Of a DNA stretch of 64,000 nt, positions 1 through 58,776 are shown piece after piece; the stretch's first letter is position 1; each line of letters starts with the position of its first letter. The translations under genes and the position numbers were made by a program. The DNA is from a bacterium. Its GTDB lineage: Bacteria > UBA8248. Under the pieces are notes generated by a model. The model was not told the DNA's origin. It worked only from the letters and a program-made list of their open reading frames with translations, and did no database searches. The DNA lies in assembly GCA_030922375.1 (NCBI GenBank), contig JAVEPB010000049.1, positions 5,074 through 69,073 of the forward strand, read 5' to 3'.

Positions 1-1266
1 GTAGGGGTTCCCCTGGAAGGAATAGCTGCCGATGACGGCCATCATGGTGATCAAAGGGATCACCAGGTGGCGGGGAAGCTGGCCCAGCCGAGCGTAGAGC
101 AAGGCAAAGAAGCGCCCAATTGCCAGATTGAAGAAGTTGCCGATGAACAAAATGATGAACAGGGAATAGACCACAGTGGGATAGAGCTCAAACATCCGAG
201 GCGAGGGCGTCGCCCCCTGAAGCATGAGGGCGCCTCCGATGAGCGCGGCCGAGGAGCTTCCGGGGATGCCGAAAGCGAGCAAGGGGATCAGCGTGGGACC
301 CACGGTGGCGTTGTTGCCCGCCTCGGCGGCGGCGATGCCCTCGATAACGCCCGATCCGATTTTTTTCTCCGGGAAGGCCTGCTTGGCCACGCTGTAGGAG
401 AGAAAGGCCCCCGCCGTGGCGCCCAGCCCCGGCAGCATACCCACGAACGAGCCCACGCCCAAGCCGATCGACATCTCCTTCCAGCACCGCAGGTACTCCC
501 TAAAAGAGAGGCCCTCGGTTCCCGTGGTGAGCGCCTCTGCGATGGCCCGTCCAGTGGACTGGATCGTCTGATTCTCTCGCATGAGGATGACGAACTCCTC
601 AAGCATCCGGCTCATGGCGAAGATGCCGATCATCATCGGAATGAGGTGGATGCCCTCTTCGAGCCACCAGATGCCGAAGGTGTTTCTCGAAACGGCGCCG
701 ATAGGGTCTGAGCCGATGGTGCCCACGAAGAGGCCCAGCGCCGCGCTCATCATCCCCTTGGCGAGGTGGCGGCCGCTGAGTGCGCCCAGCAGCGTCACCG
801 CCAGGACCATGAGCCAGAAACGCTCCGAGGGGCCGAACTTGAGGGCGACGACCGCCAGAAGGGGTGCGATGACGATGGTAATCACGTCGCTCAGAGTGTC
901 AGCGGTCACGGAGGCGTAGAGCGCCATCAGGATCGCTTTTCGCCCCTTGCCCCGCCGCATGAGCTTGAAGCCATCGTAAACGGTGGCGGCGGCCTCGGGG
1001 GTTCCCGGCGTGGCGAAACTGATGGCCGAGATGGAACCGCCATAAACGGCGCCTTTGTATAGGCCGATGAGGAGACCCAAGGCAGAGGCGGTGTCCATTC
1101 CGAAAGTGAGCGGAAGCATCAGGGCCACGCCGGTCGAGGCCGTGAGGCCGGGAATCGCGCCCACGCCCACCCCGATGGTCACCCCCACCGCCAGCCAGTA
1201 GAGCGTCCGGAAGGTGAAGACCAGGGTTAACGCATCGTAAAAGGGGTCTACCTGAAAAATATCCAT
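1..1266 (-). CDS. tctA: Tripartite tricarboxylate transporter large permease TctA (3' end runs off the window; absent from the ORF track because no stop lies in the window)
   Basis: Manual minus-strand translation from ATG 1266..1264 gives 422 open codons down to position 1. It reads MDIFQVDPFYDALTLVFTFRTLYWLAVGVTIGVGVGAIPGLTASTGVALMLPLTFGMD... and is a polytopic Gly/Ala-rich TctA-like permease. It lies directly downstream of tctC and tctB. Confidence 0.85.
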   Translation of the reverse strand, partial: MDIFQVDPFYDALTLVFTFRTLYWLAVGVTIGVGVGAIPGLTASTGVALMLPLTFGMDTASALGLLIGLYKGAVYGGSISAISFATPGTPEAAATVYDGFKLMRRGKGRKAILMALYASVTADTLSDVITIVIAPLLAVVALKFGPSERFWLMVLAVTLLGALSGRHLAKGMMSAALGLFVGTIGSDPIGAVSRNTFGIWWLEEGIHLIPMMIGIFAMSRMLEEFVILMRENQTIQSTGRAIAEALTTGTEGLSFREYLRCWKEMSIGLGVGSFVGMLPGLGATAGAFLSYSVAKQAFPEKKIGSGVIEGIAAAEAGNNATVGPTLIPLLAFGIPGSSSAALIGGALMLQGATPSPRMFELYPTVVYSLFIILFIGNFFNLAIGRFFALLYARLGQLPRHLVIPLITMMAVIGSYSFQGNPY

Positions 1267-1291
1267 TTCGCGCCGAACGGTTTCCTAATTT

Positions 1292-1792
1292 TTAAAAAGG
1301 TAAAATGCCGGGAGGAAGATCGATCCCGATCAGTTTAAACAATCCGTAGACCAGCACCGCGGTCACGGCTCCCGCGATAAGCGCGCTCGACCATGGCCTG
1401 AGCCCGAGAAAATAGACGAAAACGAACAGGAAAAAAGGGCTGACCAGCAAATAGCCTATCTCCAGGATCAGGTAAAAATACGCGCCGCACCCCACCAGGA
1501 CCACGATACTGAACAAAAACCACACCCATCGCATTTCGTCCAGTTCCCGAATTCGCTCATTTCGGTTGCGGTCCAGAATGAGCGAGACCGTGCAAAGCAA
1601 CATGAAAACGACGCCCGTAACGGGAAAGAAGCCGAGGGTGAAGCCGTCGCGAAGCTCTTCGTGAACCCATGGGGAAAATTGCAAAAAAGTCAGGTAGGCA
1701 AGCAGACACGCCGTCAGGAGAACGCCGACTCCCTGATTCGTCCTGATCCACTTTTGAACCGGGCTCCGCTCCGGGGGGAGGACGCCGGACAT
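1292..1792 (-). CDS. tctB: Small TctB-type membrane subunit of the tripartite tricarboxylate transporter
   Basis: 166-aa ORF with about 4 hydrophobic helices (GVGVLLTACLLAYLTFL, VTGVVFMLLCTVSLIL, VWFLFSIVVLVGCGAYFYLIL, FFLFVFVYFLGL). It is sandwiched between tctC and tctA. Confidence 0.7.
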   Translation of the reverse strand: MSGVLPPERSPVQKWIRTNQGVGVLLTACLLAYLTFLQFSPWVHEELRDGFTLGFFPVTGVVFMLLCTVSLILDRNRNERIRELDEMRWVWFLFSIVVLVGCGAYFYLILEIGYLLVSPFFLFVFVYFLGLRPWSSALIAGAVTAVLVYGLFKLIGIDLPPGILPF

Positions 1793-1871
1793 AAATCGAC
1801 TCCTGTGAAATTTCCGGCCAGGGCCGCCAGAAGGGCCGGCCCGGGCCGAGATCTATCAACGGGAACGGGAA

Positions 1872-2840
1872 TTATTTCTTCTTGAGAAGACTTACGGCGC
1901 CCGCCATCTTTTTCACAACGCCGGCGTAAACTTTCGCCGCCTCGGCCCTTGGAGAATAGATGATTTCCTCGCCGATTTTCTTAATCAGCCGCTTCACCGG
2001 CTTTTGCTTGAGCAATTTTCCGATTTGGACCGAGAGCTCGTCCGCGATGGCATCCGGGGTGTCGGGATGCACGCCGATCCAGCGGGGGAAACTGATATCT
2101 TTAATCCCCGCGTCCTTCGCCATCGGGAGCCCCTTGAACATTTTGAGTTTCTTGCTGATCTTCATGTTGCTCGAATTAATGATCGCCGAGGCCCGTTTGG
2201 GAACTAAACCCGCGCCAGAAGACGCTGTGATGGCAACCAGGTTGACGTGCCCGCCCAGAAAGTCGCTCACCGCTTTGCCAGTGCCGGAATAGGGAACCGC
2301 CGTCACCTTCAGTCCAAGCTGGTTGAGGATGAACGTCTGGCCCAGCAGGTGGGATTGCGTTCCGCCGAGGGTGAGCTTTCCGGGGTTCTTCTTGGCGTAG
2401 GACTTCAGGCCGTCCAAGGAGGCCCAGGGCTTCCCGGGAGCGCTCAGCAAAATAGAGCGGAACGAGGACACAAGTGCTACGATCTTGACCTGACTGGTTT
2501 TGAGAGGAGGGTTTTTCTCTCTCAAAAGGCCGATGATGGGCGTCGGACTGGCCATCAGAATTGTGCATCCGTTGGGCTTTTTGCTCAGCATATACTTCCA
2601 CCCCACGACGCCAGAGGCGCCGGGCTTGTTCACAACCCGCATGGCCATGCCGAACACGTCGAAAGATGCCGAAGAGAGTATCCGCCCCCAGCGGTCCGTG
2701 CCGCCGCCCGCGCCGAAGGGTACCACCCAGGTAATCACGTTCCGCGGGCACTTCAGCTCCGCCTGGCCCGGACGTACCCCGGCAAAAACGAAACTCAACG
2801 AAAGAAATACAACCGCAAGAATTTTCATCCCTGTTCTCAT
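1872..2840 (-). CDS. tctC: Bug/TctC-family periplasmic substrate-binding protein
   Basis: 322-aa ORF with signal peptide MKILAVVFLSLSFVFAGV and TctC-like motifs VVPFGAGGGTDRWGR and NKPGASGVVG. Confidence 0.85.
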   Translation of the reverse strand: MRTGMKILAVVFLSLSFVFAGVRPGQAELKCPRNVITWVVPFGAGGGTDRWGRILSSASFDVFGMAMRVVNKPGASGVVGWKYMLSKKPNGCTILMASPTPIIGLLREKNPPLKTSQVKIVALVSSFRSILLSAPGKPWASLDGLKSYAKKNPGKLTLGGTQSHLLGQTFILNQLGLKVTAVPYSGTGKAVSDFLGGHVNLVAITASSGAGLVPKRASAIINSSNMKISKKLKMFKGLPMAKDAGIKDISFPRWIGVHPDTPDAIADELSVQIGKLLKQKPVKRLIKKIGEEIIYSPRAEAAKVYAGVVKKMAGAVSLLKKK

Positions 2841-2861
2841 GCTCTCCCTCCTTTCAGTAAA

Positions 2862-3713
2862 TCAGGTAACTTCTCTCGGGTCCTGAATAACCACTTCGGA
2901 GACGTCGTGGCCGCCCTCCCGGCAGGCGGACCCAATCATTTCGGCCAAATCCTTTCCGGGAAGAATACATTCTTCACAGACACTATCCCAAAAAATGAGT
3001 TTCATGGTAATCGTGCCGTTTTCCCGGGAAGCGACGGCGAGGTCGGCTCCATCCGCCTGGAGCATCTTCCGTATGGGTGAGATCGCTTCATCGAGGGGGC
3101 CAAGATCCATGGAGGGGGTTTCCGGGGCGGACGTGGCTGTACCACCGCCCTTCTCCGTGCCGGAAGACTGAGTACCCGTCAGATGACGAACGAGATCGGA
3201 ATAGATGGCTTCCACTTTTTCCTCGATTTCATCCTCAGTAGCCACGGCTACCGGGTGTTCGAGCATAACGAAAGGCAACTCCGGATATCCCAGCGCCCTC
3301 TGCTGCGCCTCGGCGATGGATTGAAACGCGGTGGTGATCACGCAGACGGTTGGAATCCCAGCTTTTTCAAGATTCACCGAGTCCTGGAGACTCCAGGAGG
3401 TGCAGCTTCCTCATTCTCCGAGGCCGGTGACGGCCGCATCTGCATGTTCGGCGACCGGATCGAGAATATCCGGACGGGCGGGCCGTGTGAAAAAGGGTTT
3501 TTGGTGATGGCGAACTTTTTTGACGCCCTCGCGTTCGACGAGCATCTCCCCGAGCCGTTGAAAATATTTGTTCAGCGGCTGGAGCTTATTGTTGTCTAGA
3601 AAAGCGACGGTTTTGCCGCGAAGAATGTCCAGGCGCGGTGAAAGCTCTCCCCCGCCAGGGAAGCGGTCAGGGGTGGGATTCAGGACGATGATGCCGCCGA
3701 TTGGATTTCTCAT
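2862..3713 (-). CDS. UGSC-motif selenoprotein (Sec encoded by in-frame TGA at 3413..3411) with a NifU/Nfu-like C-terminal domain
   Basis: ORFs 3411..3713 and 2862..3377 are in the same frame and separated only by TGA plus 11 open codons. The joined product reads ...AAVTGLGE-U-GSCTSWSLQDSVNLEKAGIPTVCV.... A SECIS-like hairpin follows the TGA. The C-terminus ISPIRKMLQADGADL...KLIFWDSVCEEC resembles an Nfu domain. Confidence 0.8.
3375..3402 (-). promoter_or_regulatory. Candidate bacterial SECIS hairpin for the UGSC selenoprotein
   Basis: RNA sense is CACC-U-CCUGGA-GUC-UCCAGG-ACUC-GGUG. The 4-bp plus 6-bp stems start 8 nt after the UGA, and the apical loop contains GU. Confidence 0.55.
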
Positions 3714-3716
3714 GGC

Positions 3717-4778
3717 TCAAACCTCGATCTTTTCGGTGACCGCGCGGGTCCCCCAGCCGGGGATGAATACCGAATGCCGTCCCTGTCCGCCCGCGACGAT
3801 AACCAGAATATCCTCGGGAGTCCGGACGATAGGGGCGAGGGATTCCTCGTTTTCCCGGTCCACCCATCTGGGCCAGAAATTTTTCTTGTATTCGGAGCCG
3901 TACATTCCGTTGTATTTGAGTTCCTTGAGAGGCTGCCGAGCTGTTTCCCAGAGATAATACTGCACGTCGCGTTTTTTCCAGCCACTCTCGGCGATGCTTG
4001 CGGCGTGTTCCGGGCAGAGAACAACCATCGTATCGCCCATGACGTAAAAATTGTTGTGCCCGGTGCCCTTCATCGCCCCGGCGACGCCGTAGAGAATCTG
4101 AAGCGGGTCTCGCTCGGCGTGGTTATTGATGTTATGGGGCGGCTCGCAACTAAAGGCCGTAATGGTGCTCTCCTCGGCCTTGAAGCCCCGTCCGGCATGA
4201 AACGGCTCCCAGGGGCTTTCCTCCTCGTTCTCGGCAAAGAGGTAGGCGTATTTCCCCGGGTGGCCGAAGGTGGCCTTGTCCGTTTCCCCGGGGATTCCGC
4301 CACCGAGGTTCATCATAATGAGCCTGAGCGCCCGGCCTATAGCGGCGTTCGCCCGGAATCCGCTGCCCAAGCAGCCAGCCTTGGAGTTAATTTCGAGCTT
4401 CCGGGCGATGGGGCCGTTGACCACGAAAGAGGGGGTGCTCATGTGGGTGGTGGACTGAACCCCCTTGAGATTGAATTTTTCGGTCAGCATGGCCTTGAGG
4501 CCGGCGATTACGACGGGGAGATACTCTGGTTTGCATCCGGCCATGAGGGCGTTAATAGCCACCTTTTCCACGGTCGCGCCGCCGTTTATAGGAGGAACGT
4601 AGCCGATGAATTCCTGCGGATCCCGGTCTCCCACCATGCGCCGGACTCCATCCGGGGTGGGTGGAACGATGGGCAGCCCGTCCGTCCATCCGTTCTCCAT
4701 GAAAATTTCGATGGCCGCGATGGGATCTTTGACCGGAATTTCCTTCGATTCGAGGATCGTCATTTTCTTCTCCAACAT
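3717..4778 (-). CDS. Conserved-looking soluble protein of unknown function, translationally coupled to the selenoprotein gene
   Basis: ORF 3717..4958. The 5' part overlaps the CoA-transferase gene, so I placed the start at ATG 4778. ATG 4763 is an alternative and has GGAG 6 nt upstream. I can assign no motif (GWTDGLPIVPPTPDG, KGVQSTTHMSTP, GGGIPGETDKATFGHPGKY). The stop is 3 nt from the selenoprotein ATG. Confidence 0.6.
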   Translation of the reverse strand: MLEKKMTILESKEIPVKDPIAAIEIFMENGWTDGLPIVPPTPDGVRRMVGDRDPQEFIGYVPPINGGATVEKVAINALMAGCKPEYLPVVIAGLKAMLTEKFNLKGVQSTTHMSTPSFVVNGPIARKLEINSKAGCLGSGFRANAAIGRALRLIMMNLGGGIPGETDKATFGHPGKYAYLFAENEEESPWEPFHAGRGFKAEESTITAFSCEPPHNINNHAERDPLQILYGVAGAMKGTGHNNFYVMGDTMVVLCPEHAASIAESGWKKRDVQYYLWETARQPLKELKYNGMYGSEYKKNFWPRWVDRENEESLAPIVRTPEDILVIVAGGQGRHSVFIPGWGTRAVTEKIEV

Positions 4779-4816
4779 CCGGTTTGCCCGGGGCCTGGCG
4801 GAAGGGCCCGCCCTTT

Positions 4817-6136
4817 CTATTCCATCCGATTGAGTTTCCTTGCCGCCGCCGAGAGTTCTTCCCGGAAATCCGGGTGGGCGATTTCGATGAGGGTATTCGC
4901 CCGCTCGCGCAGAGAGCGTCCCCTGAGATTCCTGGCCCCGTATTCGGTGACAATCCATTCCGTCTCGGCCCGGGGAACCGTTACGGTGGCCCCAGCGTCC
5001 AGATAAGGAACGATCCGGGAAACCCCGTCGCCCTTTGCCGTGCTCGGCAGAGTAACGACGAACCGGCCGCCAGGGCTGCGCGATGAGCCGCGGGCAAAGT
5101 CCGAAAGCCCACCCGTGCCGGATATTTGCCGCGATCCCAGGCTTTCGGAGTTAACCTGTCCAGTCAAGTCTACCTGCACCGCACCGTTAATTGCCACCAT
5201 GTTCTCGATTTGTCCGATACGATAGGGATCGTTCGTGTATTCGATGGGATGAAATTCGATGGCAGGGTTACGGTCGATATAGCCGTATAAATTGCGGGTG
5301 CCGCGGCAAAAGCTGGTGACGATCTTCCCCCGATCAATGGTTTTTTTTGAACAGGTGATGCAACCCTTTTCGATAAGATCGATCATCCAGTCGGTGAACA
5401 GTTCTGTATGGATACCGAGGTCCTTCCTGCCGTCCAGAAACTCCGCAGTGGCGGCCGGCACCGCTCCGCCACCCACCTGAAGACAGTCTCCGTCACGCAC
5501 GAGTGAGGCGACGTGAGCTCCGATTTTCTCCTCGACCTCGCCGATTAGGGGGCGGGGTTGTTCGGCCAGGGGATAATCCACCTCGATAACAGCGTCGGCG
5601 CATTCCAGTGGAAAGCGTACAGGTCCAGCCGTTTCGGGCGCCTGGCGGTTTACCTCGGCGATGACAGTTCGCGCCGCGCGTCGGGCGGATTCCATGAAAC
5701 CAATATAAGCGCCATAGCTGCATGTGCCGTCCGGGGCGGGCGGAGCGAGGGAAACCACGGCTACGTCGAGCTTTCGGGGTTCTTCGAAAAATAGACGGCC
5801 AATCTCGTGAAAATAAGCGGGGGTGAAATCAGCGTTCCCCTCCGCCACGGCGTCGCGCATCGCCCGAGGCACCAGCATTGTGTTCAGGCGGATATGCCTA
5901 GCCATCTCGGGTCTTGTGTCCGGCGATTTCCCCAAAAGCCGCATGTGTATGAGCTCGACTCCTTTGAGCTCGCCGGCGCGCTCGTATAGCGCATTCAGGA
6001 ACGCCAAGGGCGTGCTGGCGTTGGCGCTTATGGCAACCCTGTCTCCCGATTTCACGAGCGCCGCCGCTTCCCCGGGGGAGCAGACTTTTGCCCGGGAACA
6101 AAGGTTTTCCGTGGCGGTGGCCCGTTTCTTTGTCAT
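4817..6136 (-). CDS. Acetyl-CoA hydrolase/transferase family protein (4-hydroxybutyrate CoA-transferase-like)
   Basis: ORF 4817..6184 with motifs CSPGEAAALVKSGDRVAISANASTP and SGTGGLSDFARGS. I moved the start to ATG 6136, which has AGGAG upstream. The reason is that 6151..6184 belongs to a repeat that is non-coding at 34365. Confidence 0.85.
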   Translation of the reverse strand: MTKKRATATENLCSRAKVCSPGEAAALVKSGDRVAISANASTPLAFLNALYERAGELKGVELIHMRLLGKSPDTRPEMARHIRLNTMLVPRAMRDAVAEGNADFTPAYFHEIGRLFFEEPRKLDVAVVSLAPPAPDGTCSYGAYIGFMESARRAARTVIAEVNRQAPETAGPVRFPLECADAVIEVDYPLAEQPRPLIGEVEEKIGAHVASLVRDGDCLQVGGGAVPAATAEFLDGRKDLGIHTELFTDWMIDLIEKGCITCSKKTIDRGKIVTSFCRGTRNLYGYIDRNPAIEFHPIEYTNDPYRIGQIENMVAINGAVQVDLTGQVNSESLGSRQISGTGGLSDFARGSSRSPGGRFVVTLPSTAKGDGVSRIVPYLDAGATVTVPRAETEWIVTEYGARNLRGRSLRERANTLIEIAHPDFREELSAAARKLNRME

Positions 6137-6150
6137 CGGGCGATACTCCT

Positions 6151-6245
6151 GTTCTGGTTCAGCGAATCTTTGGGTTGTTTTCACTGCAGGAACGACTTGA
6201 TTTACCGGCGTTTATAATTCTCCCATAGGCCCGACTGAAAATACT
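6151..6245. repeat. Intergenic repeat, B-module copy (GTTCTGGTTCAGCGAATC...TCACTGCAGGAACGACTTGA...)
   Basis: About 80 percent identical by eye over about 95 nt to 34365..34460. Both copies lie immediately upstream of minus-strand start codons. Confidence 0.8.
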
Positions 6246-6305
6246 TTTTAGGGCCATAACTTCCGCTACATAGGCAGGAATGGCGCGCTTCCCGCCATTC
6301 GGAAA

Positions 6306-7343
6306 TTAACGCTCCCTCTCCTCAAGAATCTCTGCAATTTCTACCGGCTGACCCCGCTCAGCCGAGCATAAGCCTGCCCGAACCACCGCCAGAACGTGAA
6401 GGCCCTCCTGGCCACCAACCTCAGGCGCACGGCCTTCTCGGACTGCTCCAGCGAAATCCTCCAGATTTTCTCTCACTTGCCCTTGGCCAGGGAATTCCTC
6501 GAAGGGGACATGCTCCATTATTTCCCCGTCTCGCTTTAGAATGGAAACACCGTCCCAACGGTCGTAGTATATGTTCGCTTCGCTGCCAAACGTGTTCAGG
6601 GATAATGTGAAGCGTCCTTTTCGGTTAGTCGGACTGATGAAACTGGAACCAAGAGTACCCAGGAGTCCAGATTCGAACTCGAGCCAAAGAACGGCCACGT
6701 CGGGAATTTCCGATTTCGTCATCACCTTACTGAACGCTGCCGATACTCGACGAATCGGGCCAAACAGATAGAGCATGTTGTCGATTTGATGTACTGCTAC
6801 CTGCATCAAGGGCCCACCGGGGGACCCATCATTATACCACTGCCAGTCATTGGGAGTGTAAAAGAACCCGCGATCATTCGAATAATTGGCTTCGACCATG
6901 GCGAGTTCCCCCACGAACCCTTCCTGAAGCATCTGGCTGACGATGCGCAGGCCGCGCGTGAACCGATAGCTGGCATTCACGGTCAGCACGACGCCCGCCT
7001 CTTCACAAGCCCGAATCGTGGCCTTGGCGTCAGAGATGGTGGTGGTGATTGGTTTATCCGCACGGACATGTTTACCGTGACCTGCCGCCGCGATCGCTTG
7101 CTCTGCATGCAAGTTATTGGGTGTTGTGAGAATCACGCCTTCCACTTCGGGATGTCGTAATACTGCCTCGTAACTTTCCTCCTTCTCGCATCCGAATTTT
7201 TGGCTGAAGGCCTCTCGCTTGGCTGGCGTCCGCGTGAAACAAGTAACCAAATGCAACTTGGGCGATTCCTTGATTAGTTCCGCAGTTGTATTGGCCCAGC
7301 GCCCAAGCCCGACAATTGCGACCTTTAGCGGTTCGGCGTTCAT
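6306..7343 (-). CDS. Gfo/Idh/MocA-family NAD(P)-dependent oxidoreductase
   Basis: N-terminal Rossmann motif KVAIVGLGRWA, then HVRADKPI (EKP-like) and a typical C-terminal alpha/beta domain. Length 345 aa. Confidence 0.85.
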   Translation of the reverse strand: MNAEPLKVAIVGLGRWANTTAELIKESPKLHLVTCFTRTPAKREAFSQKFGCEKEESYEAVLRHPEVEGVILTTPNNLHAEQAIAAAGHGKHVRADKPITTTISDAKATIRACEEAGVVLTVNASYRFTRGLRIVSQMLQEGFVGELAMVEANYSNDRGFFYTPNDWQWYNDGSPGGPLMQVAVHQIDNMLYLFGPIRRVSAAFSKVMTKSEIPDVAVLWLEFESGLLGTLGSSFISPTNRKGRFTLSLNTFGSEANIYYDRWDGVSILKRDGEIMEHVPFEEFPGQGQVRENLEDFAGAVREGRAPEVGGQEGLHVLAVVRAGLCSAERGQPVEIAEILEERER

Positions 7344-7385
7344 AGATGTCCTCCCAATTTAGATAACCACACATCTAGCCTGTAG

Positions 7386-7414
7386 ATGGCGAATTACAAA
7401 TTCGCAATGCACAG
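7386..7414. repeat. Palindromic element, PAL family copy P1
   Basis: ATGGCGAATTACAAATTCGCAATGCACAG shares GGCGAATTAC...TTCGC(C/A)ATGCACAG with the copies at 45891, 47667 and 60822. Confidence 0.6.
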
Positions 7415-7434
7415 CCCACGGAGAAGTCGATTCC

Positions 7435-8274
7435 CTATTCCGCTTCCAGCAAAGCAGAGGACGCCAGCAGACTTTTTTCTTTTAGCTTCTCGGGGAGAGA
7501 TGTGAGCCTCGGGTCCATCGGGCAGCGGATCTGGCAAATGGCACAGGTGGTGGGGCCACTGTCTGTGTAGGCCATGGACTTGGAGGAAAACAAAAGGTCG
7601 GGAAGTTCGCTGAGGTTTTTGTAATGGTCGATGTTATGTCCCGATCGGCCGGCGGCACAGCCAAAGTGGCTCAGGCCGTTCTCCTCCGAGATGGCGTCCC
7701 AAGGGCAGAGCCTCACGCAGATGTAGCCGCACTTGTCGGGAAGGCAGAGCTCACCATCGAAAAGAGGATCTGGCGGAAGCTCCGCAGTGGTTACCACCGA
7801 GCCCAGGCGGACGTTTGCGCCGAACTTTTCTGTGATGAGGCATCCGCTGAGGCCAATCTGGCCCAGACCCGCGAGCTCGGCCGCGTGCCGCTCAGAGAAA
7901 GAGCCCATGAATCGAATTTCGGGTTTCGGCTCCTCCCGGACGATTTCGGGTGCGCCCGAGTCCCGGGCCGCGGGCATGGGCATGGTGGTGAAACCCTGGT
8001 CTTCCAAGAGGATGGCAAGGCGGTAGGCCGCGAGGTTCAGAATCTCGTTCAGCCTGAGCCAGCCGAACTGAAGAAAGGAATAGTTCGGTGCCGTCAGAAG
8101 TGTCCCCACGGGTATGCGGACGGCGAGGGAGACGACACTCCTGGCATCACGAAGCAGATCATCCGGTCTGTGGCCTTCGGGTGCCCCGGCGAACCGCTCG
8201 ACGGGAGCCACTCCCACGAGGTCTATCCCCGACTCTCTGGCGAGCTTGTCGACTTTGCTCTTGAGTTTTTCCAT
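7435..8274 (-). CDS. 4Fe-4S cluster protein, QueG / reductive-dehalogenase-like (COG1600-type)
   Basis: Cys motifs CLPDKCGYICVRLCPWDAI and CAICQIRCPMDP. The N-terminus KVDKLARESGIDLVGVAPVERF is typical of that family. Confidence 0.55.
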   Translation of the reverse strand: MEKLKSKVDKLARESGIDLVGVAPVERFAGAPEGHRPDDLLRDARSVVSLAVRIPVGTLLTAPNYSFLQFGWLRLNEILNLAAYRLAILLEDQGFTTMPMPAARDSGAPEIVREEPKPEIRFMGSFSERHAAELAGLGQIGLSGCLITEKFGANVRLGSVVTTAELPPDPLFDGELCLPDKCGYICVRLCPWDAISEENGLSHFGCAAGRSGHNIDHYKNLSELPDLLFSSKSMAYTDSGPTTCAICQIRCPMDPRLTSLPEKLKEKSLLASSALLEAE

Positions 8275-15858: not shown

Positions 15859-17241
15859 ATGGTTGATCAAAGTCTGCGCGGTTTCTTGGAGATGGTGGAG
15901 CGGGATTTTCCCGAAGAGTTCGTCCGCATCAGGGAGCCGGTCAGCCGGACCGACATCACTCCGGCGGTGTTCGAGTTCGAGCGGGCGGGGAGGTCTCCCG
16001 TCATCGTGTTCGATCAAGTCGAGGGCTTCGTTCACCCGGTCGTGACGAATATCGCGGGAAACAGGAAGCTGCTCGCGGCTTGCCTGGGGGTGGAGCCCGG
16101 AGGCCTTCCCGAAGCGTATAAGGACCGGTGCCAGAATTACCTGCCGGTCGAGGTTGTGGAAGACGCTCCGTGGAAAGAGGTGGTCATCGAAGGCGACGAC
16201 ATTGATCTGACCAAGCTGCCGATACCGTTTCATTTTCCGGTCGATGCGGCGCCCTACATCACGGCGGGGCAGATCGTCGCGCGCGACCCCGAGACGGGTG
16301 TGGATACCACCGGGTTTCACCGTCTCATGCTCGTGGGCAATAACCGTCTGGGCGTGTCGCTTCACTCCCGGCGGCGAATGTATCAATACCATCAAAAAGC
16401 CGAGGCCCGCGGGGAGCCGCTCCCGGCCGCCGTCACCATCGGGACTCATCCGGTGCACTATATGGGTTCGATGGCCTACCACTACCCGCCCGGGGTGCGG
16501 AAGTACGAGATCATCGGCGCGCTGTTCGGCGAATCCTACAAGGTATCGGAGTGCGGGACGGGGGGCCTGGAGGTGCCCGAGGGGGCGGAAATCGTCCTGG
16601 AGGGGGAAATCCTCAACGATGTACACGAGCCCGAGGGGCCCTTCGGCGAGTTCACCGGGTACGCCTCATACCGGAGCACCCAGAACGTATTCGTCGTCAA
16701 GCGCGTCCAGATGCGCAGGGACGCCATCTTCCACAGCGTGGCGTCGGGGATGTCGGCCGATCATATACTGATTTCATGCGTGAGCCGGGAGGCGGAAATC
16801 CTCAACACGCTCCGGCGCAACCTGCCGAACGTGCTCGCCGTCCACGTTCCCTCGAACACGGCCGGCGCGCTGTTGGCCGTCGTCCAGATGAAAAAGACCG
16901 CCGAGGGCCAGCCCCAGCTGGCGATCATGGCGGCGCTGGGGACGGAGTTTTACTGCAAGTGCGTGGTGGTGGTGGATGAGGACGTGGACATCTTCAACCT
17001 TTCGGATGTCGCCTGGGCGATCATCACGCGGACCCGCGCCGAGAAGGACATCACCTTCATCCACGGGGCGATGGGCGCGATCCTCGACCCGATCTCGGAT
17101 CCCGAGGATCACACCCTCACCAAGGTGGGGGTCGACGCCACCCGGCCGGCAGGACGCGATTTCGCCGAGCGGCTTTATATTCCCGACGCGCAGCGGGAGC
17201 GGGTCCGGAGGATGCTCGAGAGCGAGGGCATCAATCTCTAA
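15859..17241 (+). CDS. UbiD-family (prenyl-FMN dependent) decarboxylase
   Basis: 460 aa. N-terminus LRGFLEMVERDFPEEFVRIREPV, plus FGEFTGYASY and an overall UbiD-like layout. Confidence 0.9.
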   Translation: MVDQSLRGFLEMVERDFPEEFVRIREPVSRTDITPAVFEFERAGRSPVIVFDQVEGFVHPVVTNIAGNRKLLAACLGVEPGGLPEAYKDRCQNYLPVEVVEDAPWKEVVIEGDDIDLTKLPIPFHFPVDAAPYITAGQIVARDPETGVDTTGFHRLMLVGNNRLGVSLHSRRRMYQYHQKAEARGEPLPAAVTIGTHPVHYMGSMAYHYPPGVRKYEIIGALFGESYKVSECGTGGLEVPEGAEIVLEGEILNDVHEPEGPFGEFTGYASYRSTQNVFVVKRVQMRRDAIFHSVASGMSADHILISCVSREAEILNTLRRNLPNVLAVHVPSNTAGALLAVVQMKKTAEGQPQLAIMAALGTEFYCKCVVVVDEDVDIFNLSDVAWAIITRTRAEKDITFIHGAMGAILDPISDPEDHTLTKVGVDATRPAGRDFAERLYIPDAQRERVRRMLESEGINL

Positions 17242-18229: not shown

Positions 18230-18282
18230 GAAGTTCCGCCGACCGAAATTCCCGGCCCGGGGAAATTCCCGGCCGGAACTTC
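18230..18282. terminator. Inverted repeat between convergent genes (possible bidirectional terminator), containing a 13-nt direct repeat
   Basis: GAAGTTCCG (18230..18238) pairs with CGGAACTTC (18274..18282). GAAATTCCCGGCC occurs twice inside, at 18245..18257 and 18262..18274. Confidence 0.4.
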
Positions 18283-19621
18283 ACTCGCCGAAATCGGCGT
18301 TTTCCGCTCCGGGAATTTTCAGCGACCGGAAGGCCCCCTCGAGCCCGCCGACCGGGGCGGTGGCGTCAAGGCCCATCTTCGCGGTGACACCATCCTCGGC
18401 GGAGGGGTCCAGACGGCTGCCCCAGGCGCCGGGGACAACGAACATATCCCGGTCGGCCTGAAAGCGCGTAGCGAGGGCCCAATCCACCTCGGCGGGGTCG
18501 TGGATGTCGATGTCGCGGTCCACGCAGATGGCGTGCTTAACGTCGTAATGCGAAGCGAGGGCGGCCATGAGGGCGCTCTTGCCCTCGCCCTCGTTCTGCT
18601 TGTCGAGCTGAATCACACAGTGATATCGCCCCGCGCCCGATAGCGGGAGCGTCGCGCCCGTCACCGAGGGAACGGCCTTCCGGAGATCGTGCAAAAGTGC
18701 CGCCTCGCGCGGCACCGCGCCCATCAGAAGATGGTCGAAACCCGCCGCCACGATGGAGTAGAACACCGGGTCTTTCCGCATGGCGATGGATTTCACGCGG
18801 AACACCTCGCGTTCGGCCGCCGGGCTGTAGTAGCGGGGAAACTCGCCGAAGGGCCCCTCTCGTCTCAACTCGCCCGGGGGAATCTCCCCCTCGATCACGA
18901 TCTCCGCTCCGGCCGGGACCGGTATCCCCGACCAGGGCGCGGGAGCCACCTCCACCGCCCTGCCCCGGAGCCCGCCCGCCGCCGAGAGCTCATCTTCTCC
19001 CGGCGCGAGGACCAGCTGGCTCGCCATCAGCAGGAGCGGATCGAGCCCCACGCATACGGCCACCTTTAAAGCCTCGCCCCGCTCCCCGGCCCGGCGGAGC
19101 ATCCCCTTCAGATGGCGGGGAAGCACGAGCAACCCGAACAGGTCCGGCCCCAGCGCCTGCATCCTGTGAATCGAGACGTTCCCCTCCCCGGTGTCGGGAT
19201 CTTTGGCAAAGAAGACCCCGGCCGAGATATACGGGCCGCCGTCGAGTTCGTGGTAGGTCGGAAGGGGAAGGCGTTTTAGGACGTCGATGTTTTTTGAAAC
19301 AACTTTTTCGAGAAAAGGCGCGTCCGGAACCGCCTCCGGCGCGATTCTCACTTCCTGGCGCAGCCGCACCTCTTGGGAAAGCCGCTCCGGCGCCACACCG
19401 ATCGCCTCGGCGTACCACTCCCGCCGGCAGGCGATATTCGCCGCCACCGGCATCGGCGCCCCGTCGGTGGCCTCGAACAGCACCGCCGACTCCCCGTCAA
19501 GCTTCTGCGAAAGCGCCGCCAGCTCATGCCTCAGCCGGACGGAGCGCTTCACCCGCCTGAGTCTGCCCCCGGCCTCCAGATGTTCGATCCAGTCCCGAAA
19601 ATCGTTTATCAAAGGGTTCAT
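18281..19621 (-). CDS. UbiD-family decarboxylase (second, divergent paralog)
   Basis: 446 aa. DFRDWIEHLEAGGRLRRVKRSV and FGEFPRYYS, with the UbiD domain order. Confidence 0.85.
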   Translation of the reverse strand: MNPLINDFRDWIEHLEAGGRLRRVKRSVRLRHELAALSQKLDGESAVLFEATDGAPMPVAANIACRREWYAEAIGVAPERLSQEVRLRQEVRIAPEAVPDAPFLEKVVSKNIDVLKRLPLPTYHELDGGPYISAGVFFAKDPDTGEGNVSIHRMQALGPDLFGLLVLPRHLKGMLRRAGERGEALKVAVCVGLDPLLLMASQLVLAPGEDELSAAGGLRGRAVEVAPAPWSGIPVPAGAEIVIEGEIPPGELRREGPFGEFPRYYSPAAEREVFRVKSIAMRKDPVFYSIVAAGFDHLLMGAVPREAALLHDLRKAVPSVTGATLPLSGAGRYHCVIQLDKQNEGEGKSALMAALASHYDVKHAICVDRDIDIHDPAEVDWALATRFQADRDMFVVPGAWGSRLDPSAEDGVTAKMGLDATAPVGGLEGAFRSLKIPGAENADFGE

Positions 19622-25253: not shown

Positions 25254-28112
25254 ATGAGCATGAAACTAAAGCGGAAGAAAGATTCCGGGGCGGTTTCCAC
25301 CCGGGGCCGGTCTCTCGACCCGGTTTTGGAGCGCCGCAGCTTTCTGAAGAAGGCGGGGATCGGGCTCGGAGCGGGGGCGGTGGCCACGGCGCTGCCCAAG
25401 ACGCTTGTGCGCGAGGCCGGCGCCGCCCAGGGAAAGCCGAAGCCTCTCAAGCTCGAGCAGCATAAGACCATCTGCGGGAACTGCGCCGTGGGCTGCGGTC
25501 TGATCGGCGAGGTTCAGAACGGCGTCTGGGTCAGCCAGGAGCCATGGTTTGAGCATCCCATCAACCGCGGAAGCCTTTGCGGGAAGGGCGCGGCCGCCCG
25601 CGAGCATGTCATCAGCGAGAAGCGTTCGAAATATCCGATGAAACTCGAAGGCGGCAAGTGGAAGCGCCTGAGCTGGGATCAGGCCATGACCGAGATCACC
25701 GGCAAACTCAAGGCGATCCGCGCGAAGAACGGCCCCGACGCCGTGATGATGCTCGGCTCGGCCCACGCGAACAACGAACACTGTTATGCCCTCCGGAAAT
25801 TCGCGGCACTATGGGGGAGCAATAATATCGATCATCAAGCCCGTATATGACACTCCACAACTGTGGCCGGTCTGGCCAACGTTTGGGGTTACGGTGCGAT
25901 GACGAACAACATGAACGACATCCGCAACAGCAAGAGTGTGATTATCGTCGGACAAAATCCCGCCGAGAATCACCCGATTTCGATGCAGCATATTCTCACC
26001 GCAAAGGAGCGGAACAAGGCGCCTCTGATCGTCGTGGACCCGCGGTTCACCAAGACCGCCGCCCACGCGACCCAGTACGTGCGGATCCGCCAGGGTGCCG
26101 ATGTGGCCTTCATCTACGGGCTCATCAACGTCATCCTCAAGAACGGGTGGGAAGACAAGCAGATGATCGAGGATCGGACCTACGGGTTCGCGGAATTCAA
26201 GTCCGAGATCGACAAGTGGGATTTGGCGACGGCTTCGGATGTTTCGGGCGTATCGGTCCGGGAGATTGAGCGCGTAGCCAAATCGCTGGCCGACAACCGG
26301 CCCGGATGCGTCATCTGGGCCATGGGCGGCACGCAGCACACCCACGGGACCAACGTGACGCGCTCGTTCTGCGCGCTCCAGCTCGTTCTGGGCAACATGG
26401 GCAAGCCCGGCGGCGGGGCCAACGTGTTCCGCGGCCACGATAACGTCCAGGGCGCGACCGATCTGGGCAATCTCTCGAATACGCTTCCCGGCTACTACGG
26501 CCTCTCGCAGGGCGCTTTCAAGCACTGGTCCAAGGTCTGGGGGCTGGACTTCGAGTGGCTCAAGGGCCGCTTCAGAAGCAAGAAAATGATGGGTTCGAAG
26601 GGCTTTACAGTCGCCCGCTGGCACGAGGGCGTCCTGATGGACGCCAAGAAAGAACTCAGCAACGGCGGAGAGAATGTCCACGCCGCGCTTTTCTGGGGCC
26701 ATGCCACGAACTGCCAGTCCCAGATGCACCGGGTCAAGAAGGCGCTCGAGAAAATCGAGCTCATCGTTGAAATCGACCCCTATGTCACGAGCACCTCCAT
26801 CGTTCCCGACAGGAAGGATGGGGTTTATCTCCTTCCCGCGGCCACCCAGTACGAGCAGATGGCGAGCGTTACGAACTCCAACCGCGACATCATGTGGCGC
26901 AACCGGATCGTTTCGCCGGTGTGGGAGAGCCGGACGGACTTGGCCATACTGCTTGACCTGGCCCAGCGGCTTGGTTTGAAAGACAAGCTGGCCACATACG
27001 TCAAGGGACCCTGGAAGGGCGTTCCGAAGGATATGAAGAACGTCAAGGAACTTTCCGAGGAAACCATCGCGTCGGTCGTCGATGAGTGGAACACGGGAAT
27101 GCGCACGATTGGCATGGTGGGGCAGACGCATGCGCGGATGAAGCGCCAGATGGATTTTGCCCACGTCTTCAACATTGACACCAAGCGCGCCGAGGGCTCT
27201 GCCGTTAACGGCGAATACTGGGGAATGCCCTGGCCTTGCTGGTCGGATAAACACCCCGGGACCCCCATCCTTTACCGCGACGATGTGCCGGTGATGGATG
27301 GCGGCATGGGCTTCCGCGCCCGGTGGGGAACCAAGGCCCCCGACGGCAGGACCCTGCTGGCCGGAAACGGCGCCGCGCCGCCGAAGGGCTCGATCAACGC
27401 CGGCTATGCCCAGCGGAAGGCCTGGAAGACGGACATCACGGGCAAGGTCTTCGATGAGGCCCTCGCCCAGGGGCTTGCCCCTTACGGCAACGGCCGTGCC
27501 CGTTTCAACGCATGGAACGTCAAGCCGGACGGGGTTCCGATTCACCGCGAGCCGCTGCACAGCCCGCGGCCGGATCTGATCGCGAAGTACCCGACGTATG
27601 ACGATGTGAAGAATCACTACCGTGTGCCCACCCTCTGGAAGAGCCTCCAGAAGACGGACTGGGTGAAGGATTTCCCGATCATGCTGAACACCGGGCGGGT
27701 CGTGGAGTTCGAGGGCGGCGGCGCCGCGGGCCGCGCCTCGTGGTGGCTCGTCGAGCTTCAGCCCGAAATGTACGCGGAGATTCATCCCAAGCTGGCCAAT
27801 GACTATGGCATCAAGAACGGCGAGTACATGTGGGTGGAAAGTCCGCCCGACTGGGGCGGAAGCTACGGCGGCCGTATCAAAGTAAGGGCCAAGGTAACCC
27901 GCCGGGTTGGTCCTGACTCGATTTTCCTCCCCTATCACTGGGGCGGAAGCTGGGAAGGGAAGTCTCTTCTGTCGAAGTATCCGAAAGGAACCGAGCCTTA
28001 CTCGGTCGGCGATTCGGCCAACGTGGTGACGAACTACGGATATGACCGGATTACGCAGATGCAGGAGACGAAGGCCGGCCTCTGCAGAATTCGCAAAGCG
28101 ACGGAGGTGTAG
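25254..28112 (+). CDS. fdhA: Selenocysteine-containing formate dehydrogenase catalytic subunit (Tat-exported, molybdo/tungstopterin), Sec at TGA 25848..25850
   Basis: ORFs 25254..25850 and 25863..28112 are in the same frame. Read-through gives ...[29 protein letters not shown], the classic FDH Sec context. Other evidence is the Tat motif ERRSFLKKAG, the FeS motif CGNCAVGCG, and RGHDNVQG. Confidence 0.9.
25863..25877 (+). promoter_or_regulatory. SECIS hairpin core of fdhA
   Basis: UGGCC-GGUCU-GGCCA starts 12 nt after the UGA. The GGUCU apical loop resembles the E. coli fdhF SECIS loop. Confidence 0.65.
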
Positions 28113-37015: not shown

Positions 37016-38434
37016 TTAATTTTTCTTTAGCGTTAGCTGCAAGAGCGTGTCGGCGCGATCTTGTCCGTCGAGGTCGCGGCAGGTCTCGATGATCGCTTCG
37101 AACTGCTCCGCCGGTATCGGGATGCCCGGTATGATATCGCGGATACGGCGCGCCTCCTCGTCAAAATTCCACATGAACTCGCGTCCGGTGGATTGCTTCG
37201 TGTAGCTTTTGCCGTCCTTGGTGTGGATCGTTATCCGCGGGCCGAAGAGCGTCATTCGGTGGGACGGGATGATCGTCACCCGCTTCATGAGCTCCAGCAC
37301 CTCGGGCGGGTCGTCCAGGCCGTCCGGGACGGCCGACACACCCGGGACGGCTCCCATGCTTCGCAGCACGGGGAAGCCGCGTTTCACGGCGCCGTACGCC
37401 GTGTAGTAAGAGGTTCCGCCCACCCTGGTTTCCCCATCTTCTCGCCGGCTCGGGAAAGCGGGGCTGGGATACTGTGTTTCGAGCCAGTTCACCACGGCTT
37501 CGATGCGGTCCACGTCTTGATGATTGATGTCGTTCTCTTCGCAGAGCTTCGCCGTCACATCTACGTGCGCGATGTTGTAGCCAGCGGTCGAGTAGATGCG
37601 GTAGAGCGTCTCGAGGAACATCCACCTCCTGCCCAAATCGGCGGTGATTTTGTCCAGGCTGGCCAGGGTGTCTCCGGTAAAGCTGTAGGTAAGCTGACCC
37701 ATGTTGTTGCCTGCGTAGGCGTGATAGAAACCCGCGTCGCCTTCGAGGAGGGTTTCGCCGCCGATGTGCCCCTCTCTTGCCAGTGAGACCGCGAGCATGG
37801 CGTTGCGCACAGCGGCGCCCTCACGCAGGGAGTGGCCGCCGCTCCGGGGCCCTTCGAGGTTGCCCCCGGCCAGATTCACGCAGAGCGCGATCGCGGCGTT
37901 CACCTGGTCCTCGTTGAAGCGCATGATCTTCGCGGCGGCGATTGCGGAGCCGAAAATGCCGAACACCGGACTGGCGTGGAAGCCGCGCGCCATCACCGTC
38001 GGGATGAAGTCGGCCGCCATCCGCTCCATGACCTCGTAGCCCGCAGCGAGACCTGTGATGAAGTCCTTTCCCGAGACGCACGCTGTTTCCGCGGCGACGA
38101 AGGCGCCCGGGAGGATGCACGTACCGGGATGCGTGAGCATGCGGAAGGTATCCCACTTTCCGCCGGCCTGCATCAATTCCGCGTTCGCATAGGCGGCCCC
38201 GCCCTTTGTCACCTTGGCGCCGTCCACCATGATGGTAGCGCCGTTTTGTACGCCGGTTTCTTCTTCGGCGATTATCTTCATGGCCTGTTGACCGCCCGGT
38301 GACTGAGAGCCAAGGAGTGCGGACGCGAGGTTCTGGAGGGTGACCCCCTTGGCGCGATCGACCACCTCGGGGGGCAGATCTTCATAACCCAGGCCAACCA
38401 CCCAATGCGCTAGCTGCCGACTGAGAGATGTCAT
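37016..38434 (-). CDS. MmgE/PrpD-family protein (2-methylcitrate-dehydratase fold)
   Basis: 472 aa. N-terminus LAHWVVGLGYEDLPPEVVDRAKGVTLQNLASAL, with family-typical length and layout. Confidence 0.9.
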   Translation of the reverse strand: MTSLSRQLAHWVVGLGYEDLPPEVVDRAKGVTLQNLASALLGSQSPGGQQAMKIIAEEETGVQNGATIMVDGAKVTKGGAAYANAELMQAGGKWDTFRMLTHPGTCILPGAFVAAETACVSGKDFITGLAAGYEVMERMAADFIPTVMARGFHASPVFGIFGSAIAAAKIMRFNEDQVNAAIALCVNLAGGNLEGPRSGGHSLREGAAVRNAMLAVSLAREGHIGGETLLEGDAGFYHAYAGNNMGQLTYSFTGDTLASLDKITADLGRRWMFLETLYRIYSTAGYNIAHVDVTAKLCEENDINHQDVDRIEAVVNWLETQYPSPAFPSRREDGETRVGGTSYYTAYGAVKRGFPVLRSMGAVPGVSAVPDGLDDPPEVLELMKRVTIIPSHRMTLFGPRITIHTKDGKSYTKQSTGREFMWNFDEEARRIRDIIPGIPIPAEQFEAIIETCRDLDGQDRADTLLQLTLKKN

Positions 38435-38503
38435 CGATCCCCTTTCGCTGTGTCAAAGGTATTGAGCATTTGTATGGTCCGGTAATTTAGAAATTATTGT
38501 AAT

Positions 38504-39184
38504 TCAACTTCTCTCGACAATTGCCACCACGCGGCACGGCGCGGCGGTGGCCTCCCGGAGGGAAAGCGGCGCGGCGATCATCCGGAAGCGTCGAGGCAGA
38601 TCGGCCACGGCGGGCCAGAGCGCCAGGTTTTCGATGATGTAGAATTCGTGTTCCCTGAGCATCTTGTGGGCGGGCCATTCGATGGGGTCCGTGTCGATTT
38701 CGGGGCCGTCCACCCCGAAGAGCATGACGCCCAGCCCGAGAAGCCAGTTGACCGCCGCCGGGGCAACCGGCCTGACGGACTGGCGATAGTCCGGCATCCC
38801 CCATTTTTTCGAACAACCCGTGTAGATCAGGACGGCGTCGCCGGGGTTCACCGCTTCCCCGGCGGATTGAAGCGCTTCTTCGAGTTCCGGCGCTCCGATT
38901 TCCTCCCCCGGCTCTTTTCCGGAGCAGTCCAGCCAGAGGGCAGGTGTTTCGAGGAAAAGCTCCGGCGGCATTTCGTCTATCGTTTTTCCCCCCGGGAGAA
39001 AATGAGCGGGTGCGTCGATGTGGGTCGCCACATGGTCGCTGAAGGCCAGCATCGATGTCTGGACGAGCTTTGTCTCGGAGAGCAGGCTCCATCCGAGCAC
39101 CGCGCCCCTTCCGAAGGTCTCCGCCTGGGCGAAGGTGGGCTCCTTGGGGATGTTCTGGGATAAATCGACGAGTAGGCGTCCCAT
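38504..39184 (-). CDS. Cyclase-family protein
   Basis: SDHVATHIDAPAHF motif. Length 226 aa. Confidence 0.8.
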   Translation of the reverse strand: MGRLLVDLSQNIPKEPTFAQAETFGRGAVLGWSLLSETKLVQTSMLAFSDHVATHIDAPAHFLPGGKTIDEMPPELFLETPALWLDCSGKEPGEEIGAPELEEALQSAGEAVNPGDAVLIYTGCSKKWGMPDYRQSVRPVAPAAVNWLLGLGVMLFGVDGPEIDTDPIEWPAHKMLREHEFYIIENLALWPAVADLPRRFRMIAAPLSLREATAAPCRVVAIVERS

Positions 39185-39193
39185 GCCTTCTGC

Positions 39194-42012: not shown

Positions 42013-42278
42013 ACGGCCGGCGAGGGTCGGGCCGGGCAGGTTGTTGTGCTCCGCAAAAAATGGATTCTCTCAATAATGAAAATCTTACGGAGGTCCTGGA
42101 ACTCGCCTGGTTAGCTTTTTGAAGTGGATTTGCTACTATTTTGCTACCCATTCATCGGCGAAAGTGATTTCGGCGCTTGCCGGTTTGTGAGGCCGGGGCT
42201 ATCCGCTGGCCGTCCGGGCGCACCGGGTGCCATGTATCCCCGTGGAAGGGGTATCCGGGCGCTCGGCGAGTATCGAAC

Positions 42279-47703: not shown

Positions 47704-47993
47704 GACACCCCCGAGCGGGTTTCCGATATTAAGGGATGGATGTCTTTTTCATCCTGATCAGCCTTTTGTTCGGCCCTCCTGCACAGATGTCCCGAAAATG
47801 ATGTCCAGAGAAAAGTCAGCGAGTTCGATCCGCGCCCTGACTCCGATGTTTTTCTCCATCAGAGAGAGGGAGGCCATCATGACGGAACACCTATACCGCC
47901 CGGGGGGCTGTGAATCCGCGCGGAGAATTTGATGCCACGGTGCGAGTCTCAGCGACCTGGGCAGATTTCTCAACACTCCTGGAGGGGACGACC

Positions 47994-57782: not shown

Positions 57783-57807
57783 AGAAATTCTCCCCCCGGC
57801 CGCCGGC

Positions 57808-58704: not shown

Positions 58705-58776
58705 GGCATGGCGGCCGCCCCCCGCCGGGGAGCGGCCGTTCGCCGGTTCATCGCAGCAATAAGATTGAAGCGCAAC

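Follow-up and report, generated by a model that had tools for sequence, protein, structure and literature searches.

We analyzed a stretch of 64,000 nucleotides from a bacterial contig (GTDB lineage UBA8248; GenBank assembly GCA_030922375.1, contig JAVEPB010000049.1, positions 5,074 to 69,073), referred to here as the window, and focused on two adjacent reading frames of its minus strand that very probably constitute a single gene encoding a UGSC-family selenoprotein of 283 residues. The first open reading frame (ORF; 3411..3713) starts with the ATG at 3713..3711 and ends with a TGA at 3413..3411. Eleven open codons (3410..3378) follow this UGA and lead, in the same frame, into the GTG of the second ORF (2862..3377). 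The joined frame, 2862..3713, has 283 sense codons and a TGA stop at 2864..2862, and it is open apart from this single in-frame UGA. Its product reads ...AEHADAAVTGLGE-U-GSCTSWSLQDSVNLEKAGIPTVCVITT... around the UGA, the residues before the U being VTGLGE. A preliminary description of the DNA, made from its letters, had already interpreted the two ORFs as one UGA-interrupted gene of 283 codons; frame and junction were found as described, with a single Pfam domain lying across the UGA. The same description expected gene callers to split the gene, and an identical contig (L062, Logan) indeed carries one call of 100 amino acids (aa) and another of 171 aa, both of which match PF24696; public gene calls likewise include a 171-aa fragment of the gene, P0001. 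Selenocysteine (Sec)-type UGSC genes at the loci L063 and L065 to L068 were also split by public gene calls, and at L066 the N-terminal piece alone was called. TGA is an ordinary stop elsewhere at this locus, as it terminates both the gene directly upstream (3719..3717) and the UGSC gene itself (2864..2862). Since TGA is used as a normal stop in this genome, any recoding or read-through at 3413..3411 is site specific.

The product was assigned to the UGSC family by profile matches and by homologs that cover both sides of the UGA. With U replaced by C, it scored 160.4 bits against PF24696, the Pfam model of the UGSC family (cutoff, 25 bits), in a match that spans the UGA. NF041046, the NCBIfam model named “UGSC family (seleno)protein”, was matched from end to end over residues 33 to 179, again with U as C, and has a curated equivalog cutoff of 125 bits. 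A first homolog search returned three classes of proteins: proteins of 171 to 178 aa that start just after the UGA and represent truncated calls of close relatives; two proteins ending in ...VTGLGE or ...VTGVGE, which are calls cut at the UGA; and full-length proteins of 270 to 320 aa with C-G-S-C. The full-length Cys homologs (P0014 to P0017 and about 125 others) can be aligned before as well as after the junction and place the Cys of C-G-S-C at the UGA. A profile search yielded 702 family members, several of which are named “UGSC family (seleno)protein” by NCBI/UniRef. The 129 sequences that were retrieved comprise full-length Cys forms and two UGA-truncated fragments; CG[ST]C was present in 127 of them, and the other two were the fragments, which end in ...GLGE or ...GVGE right before the TGA. 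The motif C/U-G-S-C-T (C101, G102, S103, C104 and T105) is invariant in the family alignment. The preliminary description had named the UGSC (seleno)protein family and had suggested a search for Cys-containing homologs across the junction. The PF24696 match across the UGA agrees with the family name, and the search recovered such homologs. They do not consistently stop before the TGA or start after it; the full-length Cys forms are continuous. The family itself has been catalogued since the Sargasso Sea, Global Ocean Sampling (GOS) and Olavius symbiont surveys, with 255 Sec and 21 Cys forms in GOS (PMC2398784, PMC1976440).

Next to this protein-level evidence stands the conservation of the UGA codon. 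At four loci from genome assemblies (two Nitrospinota/Nitrospinae metagenome-assembled genomes [MAGs], one Proteobacteria MAG and one Entotheonellaceae MAG), the codon was TGA in the context G-E-TGA-G-S-C-T, and the protein was conserved on both sides; the closest of these loci, L001, is from a Nitrospinae MAG. A scan of metagenomes was carried out with a narrow alignment, a broader one being too divergent to work. The motif was recovered at 52 of the 55 metagenome loci, all 52 of which had TGA. With the window included, the codon of residue 101 was TGA at all 57 close loci that contain the motif. The same codon was TGA at six more divergent loci (L063 to L068) that were found via the neighboring partner gene described below and that include a Firmicute-like contig, Egibacter rhizosphaerae and a Tectimicrobiota MAG. 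TGA is retained in close and distant loci, and neither a nonsense lesion nor an error in sequencing can account for it. These data also bear on the reading that gene callers adopt for the identical contig and for P0001 to P0010, namely, that the UGA is a true stop and that the locus contains two genes, or a pseudogene disrupted by a nonsense mutation, in the form of a 100-aa fragment and an independently started 171-aa protein. A GTG is available at 3377 for such a start. We consider a true stop extremely improbable: one Pfam domain crosses the junction, the Cys homologs are continuous, and over 60 loci of several phyla have retained TGA at this codon, with purifying selection on either side. 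Moreover, the invariant motif GSCT(S/A)W is encoded by the 11 codons that separate the TGA from the GTG, and an RNA hairpin in this region is conserved only in TGA-type genes.

This hairpin was analyzed as a candidate Sec insertion sequence (SECIS) element, with the U of the UGA counted as position 1. RNAfold folded 3402..3375 into CACC-UCCUGGA-GUC-UCCAGGA-CUC-GGUG (-16.1 kcal/mol), a structure that begins 8 nucleotides (nt) past the UGA. The z score of the fold energy was -1.0 to -1.4 over 48 to 57 nt and -2.7 for a 17-nt core. Because the folding energy does not separate the hairpin from shuffled sequences, we relied on comparative evidence. Among close relatives (41 distinct sequences), the core has four degenerate third-codon positions (18, 24, 27 and 30), and none of them varied, whereas all 14 flanking third positions did (entropy of 0.46 to 1.43 bits; Fisher P = 3.3e-4 against the core). 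In an alignment of 14 sequences that included distant lineages, 97.6% of the stem cells were paired, compared to at most 61% in slid controls, and the covariation score of 0.44 (0.11 for shuffled alignments) was reached by none of 500 shuffles. Three of the six stem pairs changed on both sides in a compensatory manner: 18:30 alternates between C-G and G-C; 21:27 occurs as G-C, C-G or U-A; and 19:29 occurs as U-A, G-U or U-G. The helix was still maintained in divergent Sec lineages, in which the encoded peptide SWSLQD is replaced by SCSLHD, SCSVHD or SCCIHD, and the loop read G23-U24-N in nine of nine Sec lineages. The Cys-type genes, available from three loci only (L059, L060 and L061), had two or three mismatches in the six pairs and loops of GCG or CCG, with no GU. 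The loss of the hairpin from these three genes fits a need for it only in Sec insertion. A further candidate feature, the lower stem CACC/GGUG (12-15/36-39), was rejected as conserved, since pair 15:36 was present in only 26 of the 41 sequences. Of the hairpin that the preliminary description had drawn over 3402..3375, the upper stem and the GU loop are therefore conserved and SECIS-like, and the lower stem is not. Taken at the level of sequence comparison, these results support the view that the hairpin behaves like a bacterial SECIS element.

The SECIS element of Escherichia coli fdhF has a bulged U at position 17, and G23 and U24 of its apical loop contact SelB. The hairpin of the window shares with fdhF-type elements its location directly 3' of the UGA within the coding region and the G23-U24 in the apical loop at an equal distance from the UGA. 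It differs in its loop of three nucleotides (GUC instead of GGUC) and in that no bulged U is evident; binding of SelB is a prediction. By the mechanism that we propose, the hairpin would recruit SelB carrying Sec-tRNA(Sec) during translation, and the UGA would then be decoded as Sec and not as a stop, as in E. coli fdhF. A second Sec-type UGA, which had been pointed out beforehand at TGA 25848, lies in frame within a formate-dehydrogenase-alpha-like gene (fdhA), and TIGR01591 matches across it. The context of this UGA (25848..25850) is HQARI-U-HSTTVAGL, and it is followed by a hairpin (approximately 25864..25878) with the loop G22 G23 U24 C25 U26, in which the spacing of G23-U24 is equal to that in the UGSC hairpin. 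From these two independent Sec-type UGAs with matching hairpins, we infer that the organism is probably competent for Sec insertion.

Some observations weigh against the assignment as a selenoprotein. The NF041046 score is 1.2 bits below the curated cutoff, and the folding energy of the hairpin, taken alone, is unexceptional compared to shuffled sequence. No Rfam family matched the hairpin, either at gathering thresholds over the whole window or at permissive thresholds over 3300..3480; this negative result carries little weight, because bacterial SECIS elements in coding regions are short and poorly modeled. Neither selA nor selB nor selD was detected among the ORFs of the window that were scanned, including 20 further large ORFs, and the 64 kb contain no tRNA and hence no tRNA-Sec. 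The lack of sel genes and of a tRNA-Sec in the window would also suit a different explanation, in which a near-cognate or suppressor tRNA reads through the UGA and inserts Cys or Trp without any Sec machinery. We regard such suppression as very unlikely, given that the spacing and the G-U loop of the hairpin are those of SelB-dependent SECIS elements, that fdhA in the same window has both features and that TGA otherwise acts as a stop here. In addition, UGSC is an established Sec family, with 255 Sec versus 21 Cys forms in ocean metagenomes (PMC2398784). One gene of the window could be mistaken for part of the Sec machinery: 54702..55829 (plus strand) encodes a SelA-related pyridoxal phosphate enzyme. 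Its identification as SelA was rejected, as it belongs to the DgaE-type lyase family (TIGR01437, 224 bits).

Returning to the selenoprotein itself, we examined its domain architecture. Downstream of the UGSC domain and a linker, residues 209 to 274 matched PF01106 (NifU) with 20.5 to 20.8 bits (gathering score, 27 bits). For a profile built from 18 such C-terminal domains, the top PDB sequence was the NifU protein 1xhj (E = 1.5e-4), and the two CxxC motifs were aligned (CedC versus CgtC). Individually, 10 of the 18 homologous domains matched PF01106 (E < 0.01), and no other family was matched by any of them. The domain shares with the NifU C-terminal/Nfu domain (PF01106, 1xhj) a length of about 70 residues and a CxxC that aligns with the cluster-binding CxxC of Nfu; in contrast to Nfu, its family has an invariant terminal D-P-R motif of its own, and binding of an Fe-S cluster is putative. 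The NifU/Nfu CxxC domain proposed in the preliminary description was thus recovered as a remote homolog (1xhj and 10 of 18 domains), although the PF01106 match of the window protein remains below the gathering score. “NifU/Nfu-like” is supported, on sequence grounds, as a fair label for such a remote relative. Among the 129 retrieved sequences, the NifU-like domain preceded the UGSC domain in 97 and followed it in 3, and 27 had the UGSC domain alone. The order found in the window, UGSC followed by the NifU-like domain, also occurs in L001, L005 to L007 and L065, and the UGSC proteins of L002 to L004 lack the NifU-like domain.

For the fold of the UGSC domain, an AlphaFold2 (AF2) model was made of P0014, a Cys homolog that is 32% identical to the window protein and agrees with it in architecture. 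The model (mean predicted local distance difference test score [pLDDT], 87.7) contains five beta-alpha units, and its C-G-S-C lies between strand 91-97 and the N terminus of helix 100-115. A Foldseek search against the PDB gave weak matches only, of which the compact ones were flavodoxin-like (WrbA, flavodoxin and PTS-IIB); by description, no thioredoxin-fold protein was among the top 50. A PDB sequence and profile search with the UGSC domain found no match. Judged from this model, which lends no support to the “Trx-like fold” that publications assume, the UGSC fold looks flavodoxin-like rather than thioredoxin-like. The position of the UxxC at a helix N terminus fits a redox-active selenenylsulfide center. 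In the arrangement that we envisage, an N-terminal alpha/beta UGSC domain would hold the U-x-x-C between a beta-strand and a helix N terminus, the geometry of a redox-active selenenylsulfide/dithiol, and a flexible linker would connect it to the C-terminal NifU/Nfu-like CxxC domain.

The coordinates of these features and of the neighboring genes are collected in Table 1.

Table 1. Features of the UGSC locus, its neighborhood and the second Sec-type gene in the window
Feature	Coordinates	Strand	Evidence or remark
Complete UGSC-family selenoprotein gene (predicted)	2862..3713	-	One frame with a single UGA; PF24696 160 bits over the junction
In-frame UGA, predicted Sec codon, residue 101 (U of U-G-S-C)	3411..3413	-	Cys in homologs; TGA conserved
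UGSC domain, residues 10-179	3177..3686	-	PF24696 positions 2-171/172; NF041046 123.8 bits
Gly/Thr/Ser-rich linker, residues 179-201	3111..3179	-	Length and sequence differ between homologs
Divergent NifU/Nfu-like domain, residues 209-274; CxxC = CEEC 2967..2978	2892..3089	-	Remote homology to PF01106
Conserved SECIS-like core: stem 17-22/26-31 CCUGGA/UCCAGG, loop G23 U24 C25 (3391..3389)	3383..3397	-	Frozen synonymous sites; compensatory pairs
Extended hairpin with lower stem CACC/GGUG (window specific)	3375..3402	-	RNAfold; lower stem unconserved
Partner: uncharacterized, highly conserved protein of ~350 aa	3717..4778	-	TGA stop 3 nt before the UGSC ATG
Acetyl-CoA hydrolase/transferase-family CoA transferase	4817..6184	-	PF13336 and PF02550; upstream, same orientation
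GFO/IDH/MocA oxidoreductase	6306..7343	-	Part of the same-strand gene string
Fe-S protein, weak QueG/RDH-like matches	7435..8274	-	Part of the same-strand gene string
TctC	1872..2840	-	PF03401/PF07331 matches in Tct genes; directly downstream of UGSC
TctB	1292..1792	-	Tripartite tricarboxylate transporter; identical contig shows TctC, TctB and TctA
TctA, partial, runs off the window	1..1272	-	Frame open
Formate-dehydrogenase-alpha-like molybdoenzyme, in-frame UGA 25848..25850	25254..28112	+	TIGR01591 481 bits across the UGA

The gene directly upstream of UGSC encodes the protein that we refer to as the partner. Its start is probably M61 (4778) or M66 (4763) of the ORF 3717..4958. Sequence and profile searches gave no Pfam, NCBIfam or PDB sequence match for the partner; its homologs number over 7,500, and each of them is named hypothetical. 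It shares 96% identity with a protein whose name refers to a Nitrospinae bacterium; together with L001, the closest genome-assembly locus, which is from a Nitrospinae MAG, this makes a Nitrospinota-like genome the probable source of the window. The invariant motifs of its family include GWTDGLP, MAGC, TTH, EAPHN and EHA. C82, H112, E212, H215 and H258 are among the invariant residues, and only one Cys is invariant. An AF2 model of the partner (pLDDT, 88.4; predicted template modeling [TM] score, 0.90) had no significant neighbor in the PDB in a Foldseek search. Its best fold match was the [4Fe-4S] class I fumarate hydratase; this match was very weak (TM score, 0.27; E = 1.8e-3), and we did not take it as homology. 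The partner gene was found at 53 of 59 related loci, and the other six had little or no upstream DNA. Across the related loci, the partner is more conserved than UGSC (about 85% versus about 67% identity). It also flanks Cys-type UGSC genes, downstream in Nocardia and upstream in a JGI metagenome contig. Conversely, six partner homologs were taken as starting points, and in all six cases the next gene downstream was a UGSC gene. Wherever the flanking DNA of an examined locus was long enough, the two genes were thus adjacent; this holds for UGSC genes of the Sec and the Cys type and for either gene order. No paralog of either UGSC or the partner was found in a search of the rest of the window.

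The wider surroundings of the pair contain genes of coenzyme A (CoA) metabolism and of carboxylate transport. A homolog of the CoA transferase was found upstream of the partner gene at 29 related loci, and elsewhere CoA_transf_3 or an AMP-dependent (acyl-CoA) ligase, as well as tripartite ATP-independent periplasmic (TRAP) or DcuC-type transporters, are encoded near the pair. In the window, the CoA transferase, the partner, UGSC, TctC, TctB and the partial TctA belong to a string of minus-strand genes (1..8274) that may be an operon. Farther away, we noticed two UbiD-family decarboxylases (15859..17241, plus strand, and 18281..19621, minus strand), a second molybdopterin oxidoreductase (49127..51517, plus strand), in which no in-frame UGA was noticed, and an M20 deacylase (42177..43550, plus strand). 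The deacylase has subthreshold similarity to YgeY, a “selenium metabolism-linked hydrolase”. Four large ORFs of 352 to 523 aa had no NCBIfam match at E limits of 1e-5 or 1e-8: 37016..38434 and 38487..39767 on the minus strand and 47910..48968 and 57754..59325 on the plus strand.

Based on this gene neighborhood, the UGSC protein may work with the upstream partner of about 350 aa, and it would probably be the redox subunit, or the one that bears selenium. The proposed pathway would import a carboxylic acid, by TctABC here and by TRAP or DcuC transporters elsewhere, and would then convert it to a CoA thioester by means of the neighboring CoA transferase. We tentatively propose an enzyme of two proteins that has not been described before: UGSC, with or without the NifU-like domain, would be its selenium/thiol redox subunit, the partner family would provide the large subunit, and the substrates would be CoA-activated organic acids which enter through Tct, TRAP or DcuC transporters; we hold this to be possible rather than probable. 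That UGSC is tied functionally to the partner and to CoA metabolism, and that the two proteins act on a CoA-activated organic acid, is inferred from gene order. Two further points count against our reading of the locus as a whole: the structural model is that of a 32%-identical Cys homolog, and the NifU match lies under the Pfam gathering score.

A different role is suggested by the literature, which ascribes to UGSC proteins a “likely Trx-like fold” and a UxxC redox motif (PMC2398784, PMC13188914). According to this explanation, the protein is a free-standing, thioredoxin-type thiol/selenol oxidoreductase for antioxidant defense or disulfide exchange and is independent of the genes next to it. 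The location of the UxxC at a helix N terminus in the model would agree with such a role. We nevertheless consider it unlikely, since the top 50 Foldseek matches in the PDB included no described thioredoxin fold, the compact matches being flavodoxin-, WrbA- or PTS-IIB-like, and since Sec and Cys forms alike are adjacent to the partner almost without exception and in both gene orders. The near-obligate pairing, next to genes for carboxylate transporters and for CoA transferases or ligases, speaks for a role as an enzyme and not as a generic antioxidant.

The NifU-like domain raises the alternative of an Fe-S carrier or assembly factor, in which the CxxC of this domain, perhaps together with UGSC, would hold a cluster and deliver it to the partner enzyme. 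Most family members do have a NifU/Nfu-like CxxC domain fused to UGSC, and the best fold match of the partner is a [4Fe-4S] enzyme. Given, however, how weak that match is, that the partner has a single invariant Cys and that many UGSC proteins, such as those of L002 to L004 and the 27 with the UGSC domain alone, lack the NifU-like domain, we judge a carrier function to be distinctly unlikely.

In glycine reductase and D-proline reductase, a UxxC selenoprotein (GrdB or PrdB) is encoded next to a non-seleno subunit and acts with it in the metabolism of small carboxylic and amino acids. The likeness to UGSC, a UxxC selenoprotein beside a non-seleno partner, is one of analogy and not of homology. 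UGSC did not match PF07355 even at E values of up to 10, the partner protein is a different one, and UGSC has no sign of a pyruvoyl group or of a reductive cleavage reaction. A Pfam scan at E ≤ 10 with the UGSC domain and the partner gave no link to GrdB/PrdB or to any other family.

Compared to the known UGSC family (PF24696 and NF041046; for example, ABI76733.1, PMC13188914), the protein of the window differs in nothing essential. It shares the full-length match to the hidden Markov model, the U-G-S-C motif, the Cys homologs and the UGA with a SECIS-like hairpin, as well as the fusion to an extra Cys-containing domain; its domain order, UGSC followed by the NifU-like domain, is the less common one. 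A “UGSC/Unknown_1” fusion was reported in 2008 (PMC2398784). The family has been known since 2005 to 2008 and, in metagenomes from oceans and fresh water, ranks with the most abundant families of selenoproteins (PMC2398784, PMC13188914), and a review from 2026 still lists it as functionally uncharacterized (PMC13188914). The preliminary description had likewise presented it as known mainly from metagenomic surveys and without an assigned function, in agreement with these publications (PMC2398784, PMC13188914), and no functional study of UGSC came up in our search of the literature.

The annotation of 2862..3713 as one gene is a correct and routine repair of a mis-split member of a known family for which Pfam and NCBIfam models exist. 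The comparative work adds to this a defined SECIS core with G23-U24 and compensatory pairs, a flavodoxin-like AF2 model of a Cys homolog and the near-obligate pairing with a large family of uncharacterized proteins. The pairing with this partner family is the more novel, though unproven, lead. If UGSC is indeed one subunit of a two-protein enzyme, an orphan selenoprotein family that is one of the most abundant in aquatic metagenomes could be placed in a defined enzymatic setting.

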